From an uncultured Alphaproteobacteria bacterium (GTDB lineage Bacteria > Pseudomonadota > Alphaproteobacteria > Rhizobiales > Hyphomicrobiaceae), in contig CAVRWL010000004.1 of NCBI GenBank assembly GCA_963724945.1, forward strand, positions 2,093-66,092: 64,000 nucleotides of DNA, read 5' to 3'. Of this stretch, positions 47,272 through 54,133 are shown one piece after another (within the stretch, counting starts at the first letter, position 1; each line of letters opens with the position of its first letter). A program made the translations under genes and the position numbers. The notes beneath the pieces were generated by a model. That model did not search any database, was not told the DNA's origin, and saw nothing but the letters and a program-made list of their open reading frames with translations.

Positions 47272-47517
47272 CTGATAGTTCTCGTTCGCGAAAACAACGT
47301 CGACCAAGCCCTCAGGGTCCTGAAGAAGAAGCTCCAGCGCGAAGGCGTTTTCCGAGAGATGAAGCGCCGGCGGTCCTATGAAAAGCCGTCCGAGAAAAGA
47401 GCCCGAGAGAAGGGTGAGGCCGTGCGTAGGGCAAGAAAGGCTGCGCGCAAGCTAGCCCAACGCGAAGGCTTGCTCCCAAAGCCGGCTGCCAAACGGCCTG
47501 TATTCGGCCGCCGGTAG
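47272..47517 (+). CDS. rpsU: 30S ribosomal protein S21, apparent CTG start
   Basis: [29 protein letters not shown]...YEKPSEKR; GGAGG 6 nt before CTG. Confidence 0.92.
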
Positions 47518-47565
47518 GCATCCGCCGGCTCAGCTTGCGGCGATTGTTTCGGCCGCGAAGCGAGG

Positions 47566-47826
47566 TCAGAAATCGGAGGCGATCAGGGCGTATGAGCCCT
47601 GGCGGCGCCCCGAGTAGACTTTGCGCGCAACCTTGATGATGCGCTCGCGGTTGTTATCGAAGCTCTGCAGCATCGCGTCTTGATTGTGTCTCGTCTCCGG
47701 AGCAATCCGAAACAGAGCTGCCTCCTCGACGAAGAACGATACCTCGAGCGCGCCGTCATAGCCCCAGAAGCGCACGCAATGGCGCGTAGCATCGTAGCTG
47801 CGGCTGACGTTCGGGAAATTCAGCAC
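47566..47826 (-). CDS. DUF1488-like small protein
   Basis: NFPNVSRSYDATRHCVRFWGYDG..EVSFFV pattern. Confidence 0.75.
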   Translation of the reverse strand: MLNFPNVSRSYDATRHCVRFWGYDGALEVSFFVEEAALFRIAPETRHNQDAMLQSFDNNRERIIKVARKVYSGRRQGSYALIASDF

Positions 47827-47860
47827 CGATTATGTCCTGTTCGATCGGTCGCCAAGCGAT

Positions 47861-48100
47861 CTACTTTCCTGTCGTCTTTGCGGTTGCCCGCGCGATGAGC
47901 TTGATGGCGCCTCGCGCTTGCCCCGACCGCTTTGCAATCTCCTGATCTTGAACCTCGATGATCGCCTGAGCGGGCGCATCGCCCTCAAGCCCCCCGAGGG
48001 CGGCGCTTGGGACCTTGCGGTTGGACGTGCGCGTGCCGTCCTCATAATGCACGTCGAATAGTATGAACTCGGCTTGGGCCTTCGGTTTTCTGCGCGCCAT
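47861..48100 (-). CDS. small conserved hypothetical protein
   Basis: FILFDVHYEDGTRTSNRKVP...AIIEVQD; co-oriented with its neighbours. Confidence 0.75.
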   Translation of the reverse strand: MARRKPKAQAEFILFDVHYEDGTRTSNRKVPSAALGGLEGDAPAQAIIEVQDQEIAKRSGQARGAIKLIARATAKTTGK

Positions 48101-48182
48101 TGTCCGTCTCTTGGGTGAAAGGTTTTCGAGCCTGCCGATAACAGATCGTCACGCGAGCTGAGCGGGAAGCTCCGCCGGGCGA

Positions 48183-48464
48183 TCAGTGGCCCTTTCCAGG
48201 CAGGTCCCTGCCCCTGATGCACACCGTGCCATCCTGCTCGATGAGCCCCTTGTCATACTTGTCGCTGGCGATCTGCTCGAACTGCATCCTGAACTCATTG
48301 AATTGCTCGATGTGCTCCTCGCCGTGCGCCGGCGGATCTATGTCCTCAAGAGCATGGAGAGACACGAGGACGCTGATCGTGCGACCGCCGTCACTCATGG
48401 CGAACAGCACGCCCTCATGGGCATTATCCAACGTGCCCGGTTGCGCAACCGGCGTGAGCGGCAT
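48183..48464 (-). CDS. second DUF1488-like small protein
   Basis: GVLFAMSDGGRTISVLVSLHALED...FEQIASDKY pattern. Confidence 0.7.
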   Translation of the reverse strand: MPLTPVAQPGTLDNAHEGVLFAMSDGGRTISVLVSLHALEDIDPPAHGEEHIEQFNEFRMQFEQIASDKYDKGLIEQDGTVCIRGRDLPGKGH

Positions 48465-48706
48465 GATCGAACCTGTTTTCATTTGGATGGCACAACCGGC
48501 AGTTGCCCGTGACGCATGCCGGTCTTCGCGACAATAGGCCGCCGGATTGCCGTCGCTTTTATCACGTTCCTGCATCCGGGCGGCGTTAATTCCTCGACAG
48601 CCCACAAAACGGAGCGCAAAGTGCCGCGATCATCGGTTTGTTCGGTCCAGGCACCGGTGGCTGAGAGACAGCGCTGCGCTCCCGCCTGCCAACAAGGAGG
48701 GAGTTC

Positions 48707-48982
48707 ATGTGTCCGTTTTTCGGGACCCCCGAGGGGTTGTCGCCTGAGGCGCTGGAGTTGCTCGACCGAACGTTTGCAGCAACGTGGAACGATCTGCAAA
48801 TGAGGAAGAGTTCCTCCACGTCGCCGGTGAACGAAGCAGAGACACAATTGGCAATCGCCAAGGCCATCATGGACCTGGCGGCCACAGGCGTGCGCGAGCC
48901 GGAGCGTCTGAAGCGTCACGCGCTTCATGCCGCCGAACGCGCAAGACCGCGCACGCGGACCATAATTCACTTGCCCGACTAG
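48707..48982 (+). CDS. small hypothetical protein
   Basis: RBS AAGGAGG; helical PEALELLDRTF...LAKAIMDLAATGVREPERLK-like pattern. Confidence 0.7.
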   Translation: MCPFFGTPEGLSPEALELLDRTFAATWNDLQMRKSSSTSPVNEAETQLAIAKAIMDLAATGVREPERLKRHALHAAERARPRTRTIIHLPD

Positions 48983-49143
48983 CCGCCGCGCATCGCCCGA
49001 GTGGCTGAGCATCCGCTGTAAGCTGGCAATCGAGTCGTGCTATTCCACGTGGCGTCTGAGCGTCCGTGCACGGTCAGCACCATCGCCATAAGGGCACGCT
49101 ACCCGAGGCTGCCGACAGAGGCCCGCTAACAGGGGGGAATTGA

Positions 49144-50196
49144 ATGCAACATCCCGGTTTCTTTGAAAGGGCGGGACCTTTTCCGCTGCGCCTCATTGCT
49201 GCGAAGCTGGGCGCGGAGCTCGAAGGGCTCCCCGAGGAGGAATTGGTCGATATCGAAGATATAAAACCTCTCGGTAACGCTGGTCCGCACGATCTCGCGT
49301 TCTTCGACAATCCAAAGTACCTGGAGCAGCTCACCAAGACCCGCGCGGGCGGTTGTCTCGTGGCGCCGGCATTTGCCGTGCGCGTACCGGCGAGCACCGC
49401 GGTGCTCAAAACGAAATCGCCCTACAATGCCTTCGCTCTGGCGCTGCGCCTATTCTACGTTGACGCCCTGCGCCCCGTTGGCGCCAAATGCGGGGACGAG
49501 CACGGCGGCGGACGCCTCGTTCATCCCAGCGCGCAGATCGACGAGGGTGTGATCATCGAGCCCGGCGCGGTCATCGGCAGGGAGGCGAAGATCGGCGGCG
49601 GCACTACGGTCGCTGCCGGTGCTGTTGTCGGCTACCGCGTGTCGCTTGGCCGCGATTGCTATGTCGGCCCGAGCGCGACCATCACCCACGCGATCGTCGG
49701 CGAGCGGGTCATCCTGCATGCGGGTGTGCGAATCGGGCAGGACGGCTTCGGGTTTGCGATGAGCGCCAATGGGCACCTGAAGGTGCCGCAGGTGGGCCGC
49801 GTCATCATCGGCAACGACGTCGAGATCGGAGCCAACTCGACCATCGATCGCGGCGCACTCAACGATACCGTCATCGGCGAAGGAACAAAGATCGATAACC
49901 TCGTTCAAATCGGCCACAACGCCGTCATCGGGCGCCACTGCGTCATCGTCGCGCAGACTGGAATTGCCGGCTCGGCGGAGCTTGGCGATTTCGTCGTCAT
50001 GGGAGGTCACTCCGGCGTCGTCGGCCACGTCAAGATCGGCGCCCGCGCGCAAATAGCGGGCATGGCGCACGTGAAGGAGGACGTCGTGGCCGGAGCTCGG
50101 ATGGGGGGGACGCCGGCAGTGCCTTTCAACGAATGGGCACGCGAGGTTGCAACCCTGAAGCGGCTCGCCGCACGCAATGGCAAGCGCAACGCCTGA
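49144..50196 (+). CDS. lpxD: UDP-3-O-(3-hydroxyacyl)glucosamine N-acyltransferase, stand-alone copy
   Basis: FFDNPKY, hexapeptide repeats, [42 protein letters not shown]. Confidence 0.95.
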
Positions 50197-50209
50197 TTCC
50201 GACGCAGCG

Positions 50210-50416
50210 CTAGAGCAGCCCGGTGAGCGGCGTGAGCTCGCTCTCCTTGGCAACCCGCTCAAACGTCTCCGCGGCGGACTTGATGCGGTAAAGCAGATCG
50301 CCGCCCTCGAAGGGCATCAGCTTCAGAACCTTGTACTCCCTGGAGGAAGCGGGCAGCCCCCAGCGACCGGGCGTGAAATCGACCGCCTGCCCGACTTTGA
50401 ATCTGTGCCGTGGCAT
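50210..50416 (-). CDS. small SH3-like hypothetical protein downstream of cspA
   Basis: HRFKVGQAV...YRIKS..E.FERVAKESEL; 17 nt after the cspA stop. Confidence 0.75.
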   Translation of the reverse strand: MPRHRFKVGQAVDFTPGRWGLPASSREYKVLKLMPFEGGDLLYRIKSAAETFERVAKESELTPLTGLL

Positions 50417-50433
50417 CCAGCAATTCCTCGCTG

Positions 50434-50646
50434 TTAGGCGAGCTCGATCTGACCGGCCTTCTTGCCGCGCCCCTTAGGGTCGTCCTCGAGCACGAAGCTG
50501 ATCTTGTCGCCCTCATTGAGCGTGGCGATGCCAGCAGCCTCGAGCGCGCTGGCGTGGACAAACACGTCTTTGCTGCCGTCGGCCGGGGCTACGAAGCCAA
50601 AACCCTTGGCGCCGTTATAAAACTTCAAAGTGCCGGTGATGCGCAT
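50434..50646 (-). CDS. cspA: cold-shock protein (CSD)
   Basis: KGFGFV (RNP1) and DVFVHAS (RNP2). Confidence 0.96.
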   Translation of the reverse strand: MRITGTLKFYNGAKGFGFVAPADGSKDVFVHASALEAAGIATLNEGDKISFVLEDDPKGRGKKAGQIELA

Positions 50647-50807
50647 AAATTCGAGCCTTCCCTTGCGCGAGCTAAGCTGGCCATGAAAAGGCCGCGCGCT
50701 CGGCCTGACAGCTCAGTCATGGGAAAGGCGAACGACCGCAGCGGGCCAGTAGGCGAAACCGCAAACACCGAGGGCGCGCTCCTGCTTGGGGCGCGCCGGC
50801 TCAGCGG

Positions 50808-50836
50808 TGTATGGGCCCCATACAGAGTGATAGCAA
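50808..50836 (-). promoter_or_regulatory. candidate cspA promoter, implying a ~155-nt 5' UTR
   Basis: Minus strand TTGCTA-N17-CATACA. Confidence 0.5.
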
Positions 50837-50870
50837 GCACTATCGGGCCGCTCTTTAGTTTACGACTGCT

Positions 50871-51122
50871 TTACGCCATGTCGCGCCGCTGCAGCGGATA
50901 AGCTTCGCTGTCATAGAGCTTGCGGATAGTGGCGGCATCAAATCGTTGGTCGTTCGCCTCGAGCACGGTGCCGAACAGAACCTCGGAGGGAAGCTCCTCG
51001 ATGGCGAAACGGATCGCCTCTGCGCCCGAATCGAATCGGCGGTAGGTCACCGGGCGCGGGCTAGAGCCTCGACTCCTGCAGGCGTAAATCTCGGCCGGAG
51101 CCGTATAGTCGAAATCATTCAT
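50871..51122 (-). CDS. small conserved hypothetical protein
   Basis: FDYTAPAEIY...YRRFDSGAEAIRFAIEEL...LYDSEAYPL. Confidence 0.75.
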   Translation of the reverse strand: MNDFDYTAPAEIYACRSRGSSPRPVTYRRFDSGAEAIRFAIEELPSEVLFGTVLEANDQRFDAATIRKLYDSEAYPLQRRDMA

Positions 51123-51456
51123 GATCAAAGATATGGGGTCTCGGGCTGCCGATTGCATCGGGCGGCGCTTCCCGAAGTTTCTTGCTATTTGCGCAGCACT
51201 ATGAAATAAGCCCGCATCGCTTGAGCGAAGCTTGAGCGAACATCGGCGCTCCAGCCGCGTGAAAAGGACTTGGGTTCGGGCCCTTTACGAATACCGTAGG
51301 CCCCTCGTTCGTCCTCCTGTTGAGCGCCTCTGACACTTCCTCACATGACAGCCCAGGCCACGCGGGGCGTCCCCCGGATCAGCCGCGTTCATTCGCGCTC
51401 GGTCGACGCTGATGTCGGCCAGTCTTGTCGCGCGGCCACATAAGAAAGACTATCAA

Positions 51457-52740
51457 TTGACCACCTTTTCCCAACTCGGGCTCAACGCAGCCCTTTTGAA
51501 ATCGCTCGAAGCCGAAGGCTACACGACGCCAACGCCGATCCAGGCGCAGGCCATTCCGCACGTGCTGGGCGGCAAGGACCTGCTCGGCATCGCCCAGACA
51601 GGCACCGGCAAGACGGCGGCGTTCGCGCTGCCGATCCTGCATCGGCTCGCCGCCGATCGCCGTCCGGCGCTGCGCCACGGCGCGCGCGCGCTCATACTGT
51701 CGCCGACACGCGAGCTCGCGACGCAGATCGCGCAGAGCTTCAAGACCTACGGGCGCCACGTGAACTTGACCGTCGCACTCATGTACGGCGGCGTCCCGCA
51801 CCGGCCGCAGGTTGCCGCGATGATCCGCGGCGTCGATATCCTCGTCGCCACGCCCGGCCGGCTGATCCAGCACATCGAGGAGCGCAGCGTCGTTCTGTCG
51901 GGAACCGAGATCCTCGTTCTCGACGAGGCTGACCAGATGCTCGACATGGGCTTCATCCGGCCGATCCGCCAGATCCTGTCCAAGCTTTCCGCCAAGCGCC
52001 AAAGCCTGTTCTTCTCCGCGACTATGCCCAAGGAGATCGGTGCGCTCGCCGCGGAAATGCTGCGTAACCCAGAGCGCGTCGCCGTGACGCCCGTCGCCAA
52101 GACGGCCGATCGCGTCAGGCAAAGCGTCATCCACGTCGAGCCGCAGAGAAAGCAATCGCTGCTCGTTGAGCTGTTCGCCGATCCGGCGATGCGGCGCACG
52201 CTCGTCTTCACGCGCACCAAGCGCGGCGCCGACAAGGTTGCGCGCCACCTGGAGGCGGCAGGCATCAAGGTCGCCGCAATCCACGGCAACAAGAGCCAGG
52301 TCGCACGCGAGGCCGCGCTGCGCGCGTTCCGTGCCGGCCACATTCGCGGGCTCATCGCCACCGACATCGCCGCTCGCGGCATCGACATCGACGAGGTGAC
52401 ACACGTCGTCAACTTCGACCTGCCGCACGTGCCTGAGAGCTACGTCCATCGCATCGGCCGCACGGCACGCGCCGGCGCGGAAGGCATCGCGATCTCGCTG
52501 TGCGGGCGCGAGGAGCGCCCGCTCCTGCGCGACATCGAGCGCCTGACGCGGCAGTCGATCGCGAGTATCGACCGCCACGAGAGCAGGGAGGGCGAGGAGC
52601 CCGAGAGCAACCGGCATGGGCTGGTCGAGCGGCGCAGCGGCCCTCCGGCGAAGTTCCGCCACGCCCACAACGGCAAGAGACAAGGTGTGAGCACCTCCAA
52701 GCAGCAGCGCCGCCATCGTGGCGCAGCAATTGCTCGTTAA
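51457..52740 (+). CDS. DEAD-box RNA helicase (RhlE-like)
   Basis: AQTGTGKT, PTRELA, DEAD, SAT, ARGID, HRIGRTAR; TTG start. Confidence 0.96.
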   Translation: MTTFSQLGLNAALLKSLEAEGYTTPTPIQAQAIPHVLGGKDLLGIAQTGTGKTAAFALPILHRLAADRRPALRHGARALILSPTRELATQIAQSFKTYGRHVNLTVALMYGGVPHRPQVAAMIRGVDILVATPGRLIQHIEERSVVLSGTEILVLDEADQMLDMGFIRPIRQILSKLSAKRQSLFFSATMPKEIGALAAEMLRNPERVAVTPVAKTADRVRQSVIHVEPQRKQSLLVELFADPAMRRTLVFTRTKRGADKVARHLEAAGIKVAAIHGNKSQVAREAALRAFRAGHIRGLIATDIAARGIDIDEVTHVVNFDLPHVPESYVHRIGRTARAGAEGIAISLCGREERPLLRDIERLTRQSIASIDRHESREGEEPESNRHGLVERRSGPPAKFRHAHNGKRQGVSTSKQQRRHRGAAIAR

Positions 52741-53836
52741 AGAGGAGGGTTCCCGGGACACGCGGCCGGCACAGCCGGCCGCCATCGCACAAGGATCCAT
52801 CGTGCAACAGGCTGAAACCGCCAATTCCAATGTCACCGCCCGCGATTGGGCCTCGCTGCTGAGCCGCTATCGCGAGCCGAGCCCGCGACGCAGCGCGTTC
52901 GAGCTGGCAATCACCGCCGTAGCGTTCGTCCTGACGTGGGTCCTGATGTGGATCACCCTCGGGTTCGGCTATTGGCTCACGCTGCTGATCGCGGTTCCGG
53001 CCGCCGGCTTCCTCGTGCGGCTTTTCATGATCCAGCACGACTGCGGCCACGGAACACTCTTCCGCAACCGGGCCACCAACGACTGGATCGGGCGCGTGCT
53101 CGGCACGTTCACGCTGACGCCTTATGACTGCTGGCGGCGCAGCCACAACATCCACCACGCCAGCTCGGGCAATCTGCAAGAGCGCGGAATTGGCGACATC
53201 GAAACCTTGACGGTGCGCGAATATCTGGCGTTGCCGAGATGGCGGAGGTTTCGCTACCGGCTCTACCGGCATCCGCTCGTCATGTTCGGGCTCGGGCCGG
53301 CCTATCTGTTCATCCTGCAGCATCGCTTGCCCGTCGGACTGATGCGCAAGGGCTGGCGGCCGTGGGTCAGCACCATGGCGACGAATGCGGCGATCGCGGT
53401 CGTCGCCGGCGCCATGATTTGGCTGATCGGATTGGGCCCATTCCTGCTGGTGCACCTGCCGATCACGCTGCTCGCCGCATCGATCGGCGTGTGGCTGTTC
53501 TACGTGCAGCATCAGTTCGAGGAGACCACGTGGGCAGACGCCTCTTCGTGGAACCCGCACGATGCGGCGCTGCACGGCAGCTCGCATTACGCCTTGCCGG
53601 GCGTGCTGCGCTGGTTCACGGCCAACATCGGCATCCACCACGTGCACCATCTGTGCAGCCGCATTCCGTTCTATCGTCTCTCGCAGGTGCTGCGCGACCA
53701 TCCGGAGCTTGCGACGATCGGGCGTATCACGCTCATCGACAGCTTGCGCTGCGTGCGCTTCGCGCTTTGGGACGAGACGCGCCGGCGCTTGATCTCGTTT
53801 GGCGAGCTCCGCCGCCGGCTCTCGTGCCCTGCATGA
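52718..53836 (+). CDS. membrane fatty acid desaturase (Des/DesA-like)
   Basis: Three His boxes HDCGH, HNIHH, HHVHH; overlaps the helicase stop. Confidence 0.93.
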   Translation: MAQQLLVKEEGSRDTRPAQPAAIAQGSIVQQAETANSNVTARDWASLLSRYREPSPRRSAFELAITAVAFVLTWVLMWITLGFGYWLTLLIAVPAAGFLVRLFMIQHDCGHGTLFRNRATNDWIGRVLGTFTLTPYDCWRRSHNIHHASSGNLQERGIGDIETLTVREYLALPRWRRFRYRLYRHPLVMFGLGPAYLFILQHRLPVGLMRKGWRPWVSTMATNAAIAVVAGAMIWLIGLGPFLLVHLPITLLAASIGVWLFYVQHQFEETTWADASSWNPHDAALHGSSHYALPGVLRWFTANIGIHHVHHLCSRIPFYRLSQVLRDHPELATIGRITLIDSLRCVRFALWDETRRRLISFGELRRRLSCPA

Positions 53837-53914
53837 CAGCCGCGCTGCGCACATTTATTGCCCAGTTGAGATCCTGACCCCGGAGAGCCCGCAGTGACTT
53901 AAACAAGATCTGTC

Positions 53915-54133
53915 GTGCTCATGCTGGTGCTTGGTGCGCTCGGCGCCGTCATGGCGGTCGCCTTCCTGCTCATGGCCGATGGCGGCGCCCCGCATGGCTA
54001 CGGCGCGTTGATCGCCAATGAGCTCCCCGTCCTCATCGTTGCCGCGGGGATGGGATTTGGCGTGGGAATGCTGATCGCGCTTCTGTGGTCGGTCTTGCAG
54101 CGGCTCTTGGCTGTGAACGCCCCGCCGGCTTAG
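53915..54133 (+). CDS. small two-TM membrane protein
   Basis: 72-aa hydrophobic ORF; start uncertain. Confidence 0.5.
   Translation: MLMLVLGALGAVMAVAFLLMADGGAPHGYGALIANELPVLIVAAGMGFGVGMLIALLWSVLQRLLAVNAPPA

Follow-up and report, generated by a model that had tools for sequence, protein, structure and literature searches.

The window analysed here is a 64,000-nucleotide stretch of DNA from an uncultured bacterium of the Hyphomicrobiaceae (C4:2093-66092, on one of the four contigs of a 3.67-Mb assembly with 65% G+C), and the gene of interest in it is an lpxD that stands outside the lipid A operon and lies close to a cold-shock gene of the cspA family. Its open reading frame (ORF; 49144-50196, forward strand) is complete, with an ATG at 49144, a stop codon at 50194-50196 and a product of 350 amino acids. 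A purine-rich ribosome-binding site, GGGGGGAA, is found 5 nt ahead of the ATG, and the N-terminus of the product (13 residues) aligns with the housekeeping copy's MEHPGFYERAGPF. Against TIGR01853, the equivalog model that NCBIfam provides for LpxD, the product scores 346.9 bits (cut-off 242.5); its score against NF002060 is 397 bits (cut-off 207). Pfam assigns the N-terminal uridine-binding domain (PF04613) to residues 36-103 and hexapeptide repeats (PF00132) to four stretches that follow it. The protein also aligns over its full length with the solved LpxD chains 2IU8 (C. trachomatis, E = 3.6e-56), 6UEC, 3PMO and 3EH0; the structures matched come from C. trachomatis, P. aeruginosa, A. baumannii and E. 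coli.

At the level of individual residues, the window protein is 32% identical to E. coli LpxD, whose sequence provides the residue numbering used below (it differs from PDB 3EH0 at residue 2 only). The histidine of its QIGHN motif, residue 258, aligns with E. coli H239. The catalytic and substrate residues F41, D232, Q236, H239, G257 and H276, with roles as given in PMC6286764, are identical in the window protein and in all 24 of the copies that, like it, are separated from the operon (orphan copies), and the uridine-binding and glucosamine-binding residues are unchanged. Domain order, fold family, catalytic histidine, oxyanion glycine and UDP-binding phenylalanine are shared with housekeeping LpxD enzymes (E. 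coli, PDB 3EH0/4IHF; C. trachomatis, 2IU8), from which the window copy differs in lying outside the bamA-lpxD-fabZ-lpxA operon. At the chain-length ruler position, M290 in E. coli, the window copy has His309 and the Chlamydia enzyme has glycine; window Met307 corresponds to E. coli M288. Judged by its sequence, the window gene is a true LpxD, UDP-3-O-acylglucosamine N-acyltransferase (EC 2.3.1.191), for which acyl transfer is predicted.

A profile search of the contigs finds three lpxD copies above the TIGR01853 cut-off. The housekeeping copy (C1:114720-115781, reverse strand) occupies its usual place in the order tsf-pyrH-frr-uppS-...-rseP-bamA-lpxD-fabZ-lpxA-lpxI-lpxB, and is 65% identical to the window copy. 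In this genome bamA, fabZ, lpxA and lpxB are single-copy genes, all on contig C1, and no BamA, FabZ, LpxA or LpxB homologue is present on the whole 77-kb contig C4. The earlier note on this DNA had described a complete LpxD with the catalytic QIGHN histidine, missing its usual partners, flanked by cspA and small genes, and taken to be a second copy. That description holds throughout, with the refinement that the gene is one of three, and since the canonical copy sits in the C1 operon, the window copy is not the only lpxD in the genome.

The third copy (C3:1185031-1186065, forward strand; locus L003/L118) is 47% identical to the window copy, scores 339.5 bits against TIGR01853 and has neighbours unrelated to lipid A, a permease and an L,D-transpeptidase-like protein. 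In its product, valine replaces the uracil-stacking Phe41 and the ruler residue is glycine, which the C20-specific enzyme of Chlamydia also has there; in the tree it shares a long branch with the second copies of two other genomes (G009 and G003). A further divergent type of stand-alone LpxD, found at L109 (genome G010) and L111 (genome G049), falls outside both the operon clade and the cspA-linked clade and likewise has glycine at 290. Because of this glycine, the third copy and the G010/G049 type may be long-chain enzymes. The permease-like ORF upstream of the third copy (C3:1183249-1184709) continues past about 290 residues into an Arg/Gly-rich nonsense tail that looks like a frameshift from an assembly indel.

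The 80 best related loci from reference genomes comprise 65 operon copies, accompanied by bamA, fabZ, lpxA and lpxB, and 15 loci without those partners. Of these 15, L031 is placed by the tree among the operon copies and was counted as operon type, giving 66. Two loci, L028 and L029, come from records titled Leptospira interrogans strain LS0056 and Bacteroidota metagenome-assembled genome (MAG); the bamA-lpxD-fabZ-lpxA-lpxB cluster on both is typical of the Hyphomicrobiaceae and falls among sequences of that family, and the contigs probably stem from contamination or mis-binning. Across 61 evenly sampled species genomes of the Hyphomicrobiaceae, lpxD is present once in 46, twice in 13 and three times in 2, so that 15 of the 61 are multi-copy. 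The orphan of the window type accounts for 12 copies in 11 of these genomes, this one included, or about one species in five; one genome holds two near-identical copies. Hyphomicrobium zavarzinii ATCC 27496 has a single lpxD, so a cultured carrier of the orphan was not identified.

Maximum-likelihood analysis unites the operon copies in a single clade (SH-aLRT 98-99) and leaves the orphan copies outside it. The window copy forms a tight pair (support 100) with the copy at L009, a locus in a related MAG whose LpxD is 85% identical to it. A quick tree search placed this pair, weakly (85), beside the operon clade; a tree constrained to one clade of 24 orphans had a log-likelihood 8.7 above that of the free search and was not rejected (p-AU 0.75). 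The trees indicate that the duplication which gave rise to the orphan copy predates the Hyphomicrobiaceae lineages sampled.

The dN/dS ratio between window lpxD and its L009 ortholog is 0.11 (0.15 for the neighbouring rhlE and 0.15 for the desaturase gene), and the gene is therefore under purifying selection. Its frame is intact, although the assembly has indel errors elsewhere, its catalytic residues are kept in every orphan copy, and the orphan clade spans many genera. A decaying or silent duplicate with no role would fit the absence of the gene from two same-genus genomes and its somewhat lower GC3 (0.76, as against 0.83 and 0.89 in the other copies). Nevertheless, because of the selection and conservation just described we exclude such a duplicate, and assign it next to no probability.

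The partner that sets the orphan group apart is a gene for a cold-shock-domain (CSD) protein. In the window this is a cspA-family gene (product of 70 amino acids; Pfam CSD; 50434-50646, reverse strand), convergent with lpxD. Of the 24 orphan copies, 14 have a CSD gene no more than 2 kb away, and at least five arrangements are represented among them, whereas none of the 66 operon-type loci has one within its 6-kb flanks (Fisher p = 2e-10, a value that overstates independence because the loci are related by descent). Since the genome has seven CSD genes, the window cspA included, in 3.67 Mb, chance adjacency is expected at about 1%. The arrangement lpxD> <s68 <cspA occurs in this genome and at L009, and s95> lpxD> cspA>, with a gap of 250-330 nt, in several Hyphomicrobium genomes; the others are cspA> lpxD> (gap of 330-430 nt), lpxD> <s68 cspA> and cspA> gene> lpxD>. 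In several of them cspA and lpxD are thus co-directional and 250-430 nt apart, and the pair is accompanied by the genes of two small conserved hypothetical proteins, s95 and s68. The link between lpxD and cspA is real and conserved, and the retention of their proximity through several rearrangements argues for selection on that proximity.

Upstream of lpxD lies a second copy of rpsU, encoding ribosomal protein S21 (47272-47517, forward strand; TIGR00030) and 75% identical to the other copy on contig C3. It is followed on the reverse strand by a gene for an 86-residue DUF1488 protein (47566-47826; Pfam), the small ORF s79 (47861-48100; 85% identical in L009, no family match) and a second DUF1488 gene (48183-48605; Pfam). 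On the forward strand come the small ORF s91 (48707-48982; 79% identical in L009) and the 161-nt region upstream of lpxD that holds its ribosome-binding site (48983-49143). Downstream of lpxD, the small conserved ORF s68 (68 amino acids; 50210-50416, reverse strand) follows cspA on the same strand after 17 nt and recurs beside orphan lpxD in other genomes. The small conserved ORF s95 (50871-51122, reverse strand) was called as 50871-51158, and its real length is probably about 83 amino acids, with a start at MNDFDY. At least 200 database sequences match it, most of them metagenomic, and Pfam has no family for it; it is usually found directly upstream of orphan lpxD and adjoins it in L018, L019, L021, L023, L027, L034, L128 and L129.

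Divergent from s95 is a gene for a DEAD-box RNA helicase of the RhlE type (442 amino acids; 51412-52740, forward strand), of which a second copy, 47% identical, is found elsewhere in the genome. Directly after it comes a membrane fatty-acid desaturase gene (PF00487; 52718-53836, forward strand; start codon uncertain) whose product is DesA-like, below the equivalog cut-off, and which is the sole copy in the genome. A general-stress locus (PhyR / NepR / EcfG / HWE-kinase) and a CsbD-like gene follow 5-10 kb further along. The block as a whole (47272-54133, ~6.7 kb), made up of rpsU, DUF1488 genes, s79, s91, lpxD, s68, cspA, s95, rhlE, the desaturase gene and a small membrane ORF, is syntenic with positions 4279-10959 of L009, and the flanking genes differ on both sides. 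It behaves like a portable accessory island; no integrase was seen, and the rpsU-to-desaturase block is absent from two same-genus genomes (G009 and G048). Because both lack the orphan lpxD and the desaturase gene of G009 stands alone, no empty insertion site can be defined. Elsewhere in the genome, a second pair of CSD and DUF1488 genes lies on contig C2 (C2:461136-462376), its DUF1488 protein 64% identical to the window's, which suggests a recurrent association of csp and DUF1488 genes.

Genes for CspA, DEAD-box helicases, an additional S21 and desaturases belong to the classic cold-response set, and here they stand beside lpxD. The explanation we favour, at a confidence that stops a little short of even, is that the window gene is a second LpxD from an old Hyphomicrobiaceae orphan group, kept apart from the essential operon and near cspA, that is expressed in the cold and alters the N-acyl chains of lipid A. 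During ordinary growth the operon LpxD would make lipid A. The orphan copy, with a promoter and leader of its own, would be expressed together with the neighbouring cold-shock or stress genes (here cspA, the second S21, RhlE and the desaturase), and in N-acylation it would compete with the housekeeping enzyme or take its place. At low temperature the lipid A produced would then carry different N-linked 3-hydroxyacyl chains, probably somewhat shorter, and the outcome would be homeoviscous adaptation of the outer membrane in parallel with desaturation of the phospholipids.

Several observations weigh against this proposal, and they concern the distribution of the gene, its control region and the chain-length ruler. 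Two same-genus genomes (G009 and G048) have no orphan lpxD, and for 10 of the 24 orphan copies there is no csp gene in the vicinity. Cold induction is not a property of every CSD paralog. In three Hyphomicrobium MAGs (L023, L027 and L034), s95-lpxD-cspA comes directly after groES-groEL and before polyphosphate kinase 2, so that the same lpxD is flanked by a heat-shock chaperone operon and a cold-shock gene. Within the orphan group itself, the window/L009 pair has the orphan-type residues at 204, 221, 288, 105 and 164, plus a small insertion, and keeps the operon-type residue at 238, 253, 269 and 169. The pair either branched off early within the orphan group or belongs to it and has been partly homogenised.

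The control region adds further points of this kind. Scanning 47-54 kb brought up no match to the sigma-70 promoter consensus, and a comparison of the regions upstream of lpxD, cspA, rhlE, rpsU and the small genes returned scattered 9-mers only, with no shared leader or cold box. All of the 15 orphan copies examined have their own upstream region and ribosome-binding site; beyond that site, no conserved upstream block was found across them. An Rfam scan of 46.5-54.5 kb (E <= 1) gave no match, and a GCTAT-like -10 candidate before lpxD was rejected since it is not kept in L009. On the downstream side, lpxD and s68 converge with their stop codons 13 nt apart, the 47-54 kb scan found no terminator between them, and the junction forms no stable hairpin and folds no better than shuffled sequence (z = +1.2). 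Being convergent, lpxD and cspA are not co-transcribed in the window. Because of this geometry strong cspA transcription could oppose lpxD, and a cspA-s68 transcript may run antisense into the gene, which weakens simple co-induction.

An alternative reading of the same neighbourhood is that the enzyme serves general stress or stationary phase, not cold, with a partner CSD protein of the stationary-phase type. The DUF1488 genes, the CsbD-like gene and the PhyR / NepR / EcfG / HWE-kinase locus all lie within 10 kb, and the lpxD-cspA group follows groESL in several Hyphomicrobium genomes. EcfG-type motifs number 10 in the window where 1.5 are expected. One of them, GGAAC-N18-CGTT at 48788-48814 on the reverse strand, stands ahead of the second DUF1488 gene and inside s91, so that either the motif and s91 overlap or s91 is not a real gene; it precedes lpxD by ~330 nt, on the opposite strand. 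However, the motif GGAAC-N15-18-CGTT is found in the 300 nt upstream of lpxD in none of the 15 orphan copies examined, and the genes immediately beside lpxD are the cold set named above. We therefore regard a stress enzyme of this kind as improbable. A further EcfG-type match inside lpxD (49882-49905) was taken as chance, as it falls in the conserved coding stretch GTKIDNLVQ.

In a left-handed beta-helix, residues 18 apart stack on one another and each coil rises by 4.8 Å. The acyl pocket of E. coli LpxD is ~13 Å deep and is closed by M290, and the M290A mutant admits C16/C18 chains; the C20-specific LpxD of Chlamydia trachomatis has G298 at the same position (review PMC6286764). In the copies compared here the ruler lends no support to a change in chain length: position 290 is histidine in the window and housekeeping copies alike, as it is in 23 of the 24 orphans and 74 of the 80 operon copies in the alignment. 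The pocket floor should be formed by Q236, which binds the 3-hydroxyl, and positions 254, 272 and 290, since three coils of 4.8 Å would fit a depth of 13 Å, and this ladder (236-254-272-290) reads Q-G-G-H in both groups. With histidine at the ruler in both copies, any altered selectivity would have to come from neighbouring pocket positions only.

Such positions do differ between the groups. Position 288 is methionine in 19 of the 24 orphans, the window copy among them, and alanine, glycine, threonine or serine in operon copies. Position 270 is histidine in orphans and glutamine in operon copies, position 256 alanine as against serine, and positions 238 and 269 are alanine in most orphans as against glycine in operon copies; 188/189, 204 and 221 separate the groups as well. 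These group-separating residues cluster at the substrate cleft. Methionine at 288 is also found in the E. coli and P. aeruginosa enzymes, which select C14 and C12 chains, respectively. The bulkier residues beside the ruler would be compatible with an orphan enzyme whose pocket is narrower or shorter. Of the different chain selectivity that the earlier note expected the ruler residues to reveal, then, nothing is seen at the ruler itself, and what is left is the difference at adjacent positions such as 288 and 270.

These comparisons bear directly on a serious rival to the cold-expressed enzyme with altered chains: an isozyme of unchanged acyl selectivity, with its own promoter, that keeps up the flux to lipid A in the cold, in slow growth or under stress, in other words a cold-adapted or dosage copy. 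An isozyme would account for the identical ruler ladder, for the 65% identity between the copies with every catalytic residue kept, and for the separate upstream region and ribosome-binding site of each orphan examined. It would also be in keeping with Francisella, where the activity of the enzyme itself, besides its expression, is temperature-dependent (PMC3545938). On the other hand, the group-separating residues are not spread over the surface but are concentrated beside the ruler, the catalytic histidine and the acceptor-chain loop, and for a pure dosage copy one would expect loss or homogenisation, not retention as a distinct clade. We consider the isozyme possible, and a good deal more credible than the stress enzyme, though on balance unlikely.

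The changes at positions 188/189 admit another interpretation, namely that the orphan LpxD acts on a different acceptor or makes a different product, for example a 2,3-diamino-sugar (GlcN3N) backbone or another amide-linked glycolipid. The lipid A of Leptospira is built on a diamino-sugar backbone. Leptospira, too, has two LpxD (PMC10248169), and positions 188/189 belong to the long loop of repeat 5 that makes up the pocket taking the acceptor's 3-acyl chain (PMC6286764). A diamino-sugar acceptor is nevertheless unlikely here, because the genome encodes no adjacent GnnA/GnnB-like pair (its single Gfo/Idh/MocA match does not lie beside the DegT-type aminotransferase matches, at two loci) and just one LpxA, and because the residues that bind uridine and glucosamine are unchanged. 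Taking the wider range of acceptors and products together, we give this interpretation very little credence.

Returning to a cold-expressed enzyme with altered chains, LpxD pairs have been functionally studied in two bacteria only, both of them pathogens, Francisella and Leptospira interrogans (PMC10248169). The closest known system is the LpxD1/LpxD2 thermostat of Francisella. In F. novicida, growth at 25 degrees C induces LpxD2, which attaches shorter chains, and the two enzymes, 34% identical, are thought to be of separate origin (Li et al. 2012 PNAS; commentary PMC3545938). The systems are alike in having one LpxD in the essential lipid A operon and one stand-alone copy that is the proposed low-temperature enzyme. 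They differ in identity (34% as against 65%) and in history, the duplication here predating the Hyphomicrobiaceae lineages sampled. Expression, chain length (C16 versus C18) and phenotype have been measured in Francisella. The tie to cspA is a feature of the present system, no such linkage being reported for Francisella in the literature cited, and the ruler residue is unchanged between the Hyphomicrobiaceae copies. The comparison with Francisella drawn in the earlier note is consequently apt in function, for the layout and the plausible purpose, and fails for origin and identity.

Other systems offer partial likenesses. Leptospira interrogans has two annotated LpxD, and LpxD1 is described as contributing to temperature adaptation (Eshghi et al. 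2015, as cited in PMC10248169); this organism is a spirochaete pathogen, and the same article describes what controls its two copies as not yet known. The analogy with E. coli LpxP is looser. LpxP, reportedly described by Carty, Sreekumar and Raetz in 1999, is a cold-induced paralog of the late acyltransferase LpxL, and so is likewise a paralogous lipid A acyltransferase that switches at low temperature and changes an acyl chain. It belongs, however, to another family (lauroyl/palmitoleoyl late acyltransferases), acts on a secondary and not a primary chain, and is not a relative. In Sinorhizobium meliloti, cspA and an extra S21 gene occur together in a cold-responsive cspA-rpsU operon; no lipid A gene is known at that locus, and in the window rpsU and cspA are 3 kb apart on opposite strands. 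Our literature search found nothing specific on lpxD with cold shock, and no structural study of Hyphomicrobium lipid A was among the best 15 of 70 matches.

Taken together, these comparisons make the window LpxD a member of an already known kind, the alternative LpxD paralogs, for which cold or stress regulation and an altered acyl preference are reasonable but unproven. The interpretation in the earlier note is borne out in its second LpxD and in the link to cspA, and finds no support in the ruler residues. A bolder version of the proposal holds that s95-lpxD-cspA(-s68) is a conserved cold-response module of free-living Alphaproteobacteria in which LpxD expression is coupled to the CspA system. 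Coupling could occur, for example, by read-through or by CspA-dependent antitermination in the co-directional cspA>lpxD and lpxD>cspA arrangements. We think such a module doubtful, and slightly more so than the isozyme. If it were true, it would be the first direct link between a cold-shock protein regulon and primary lipid A acylation, and the first outside pathogens; the third LpxD, with its glycine at the ruler, would add a long-chain option and so provide a three-enzyme palette for tuning the outer membrane.

For a soil or water bacterium of the Hyphomicrobiaceae, the orphan LpxD is a good, though unproven, candidate for an enzyme that remodels the outer membrane in the cold or under stress. 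The two 65% identical enzymes would form a natural pair for mapping residues, other than the known ruler, that set acyl preference. One non-essential gene beside an essential operon copy would also give a genetic handle on homeoviscous adaptation of lipid A. If the cold-expressed enzyme with altered chains is borne out, the exchange of one primary N-acyltransferase for another would be a general means of keeping the outer membrane fluid and not a trick specific to pathogens.

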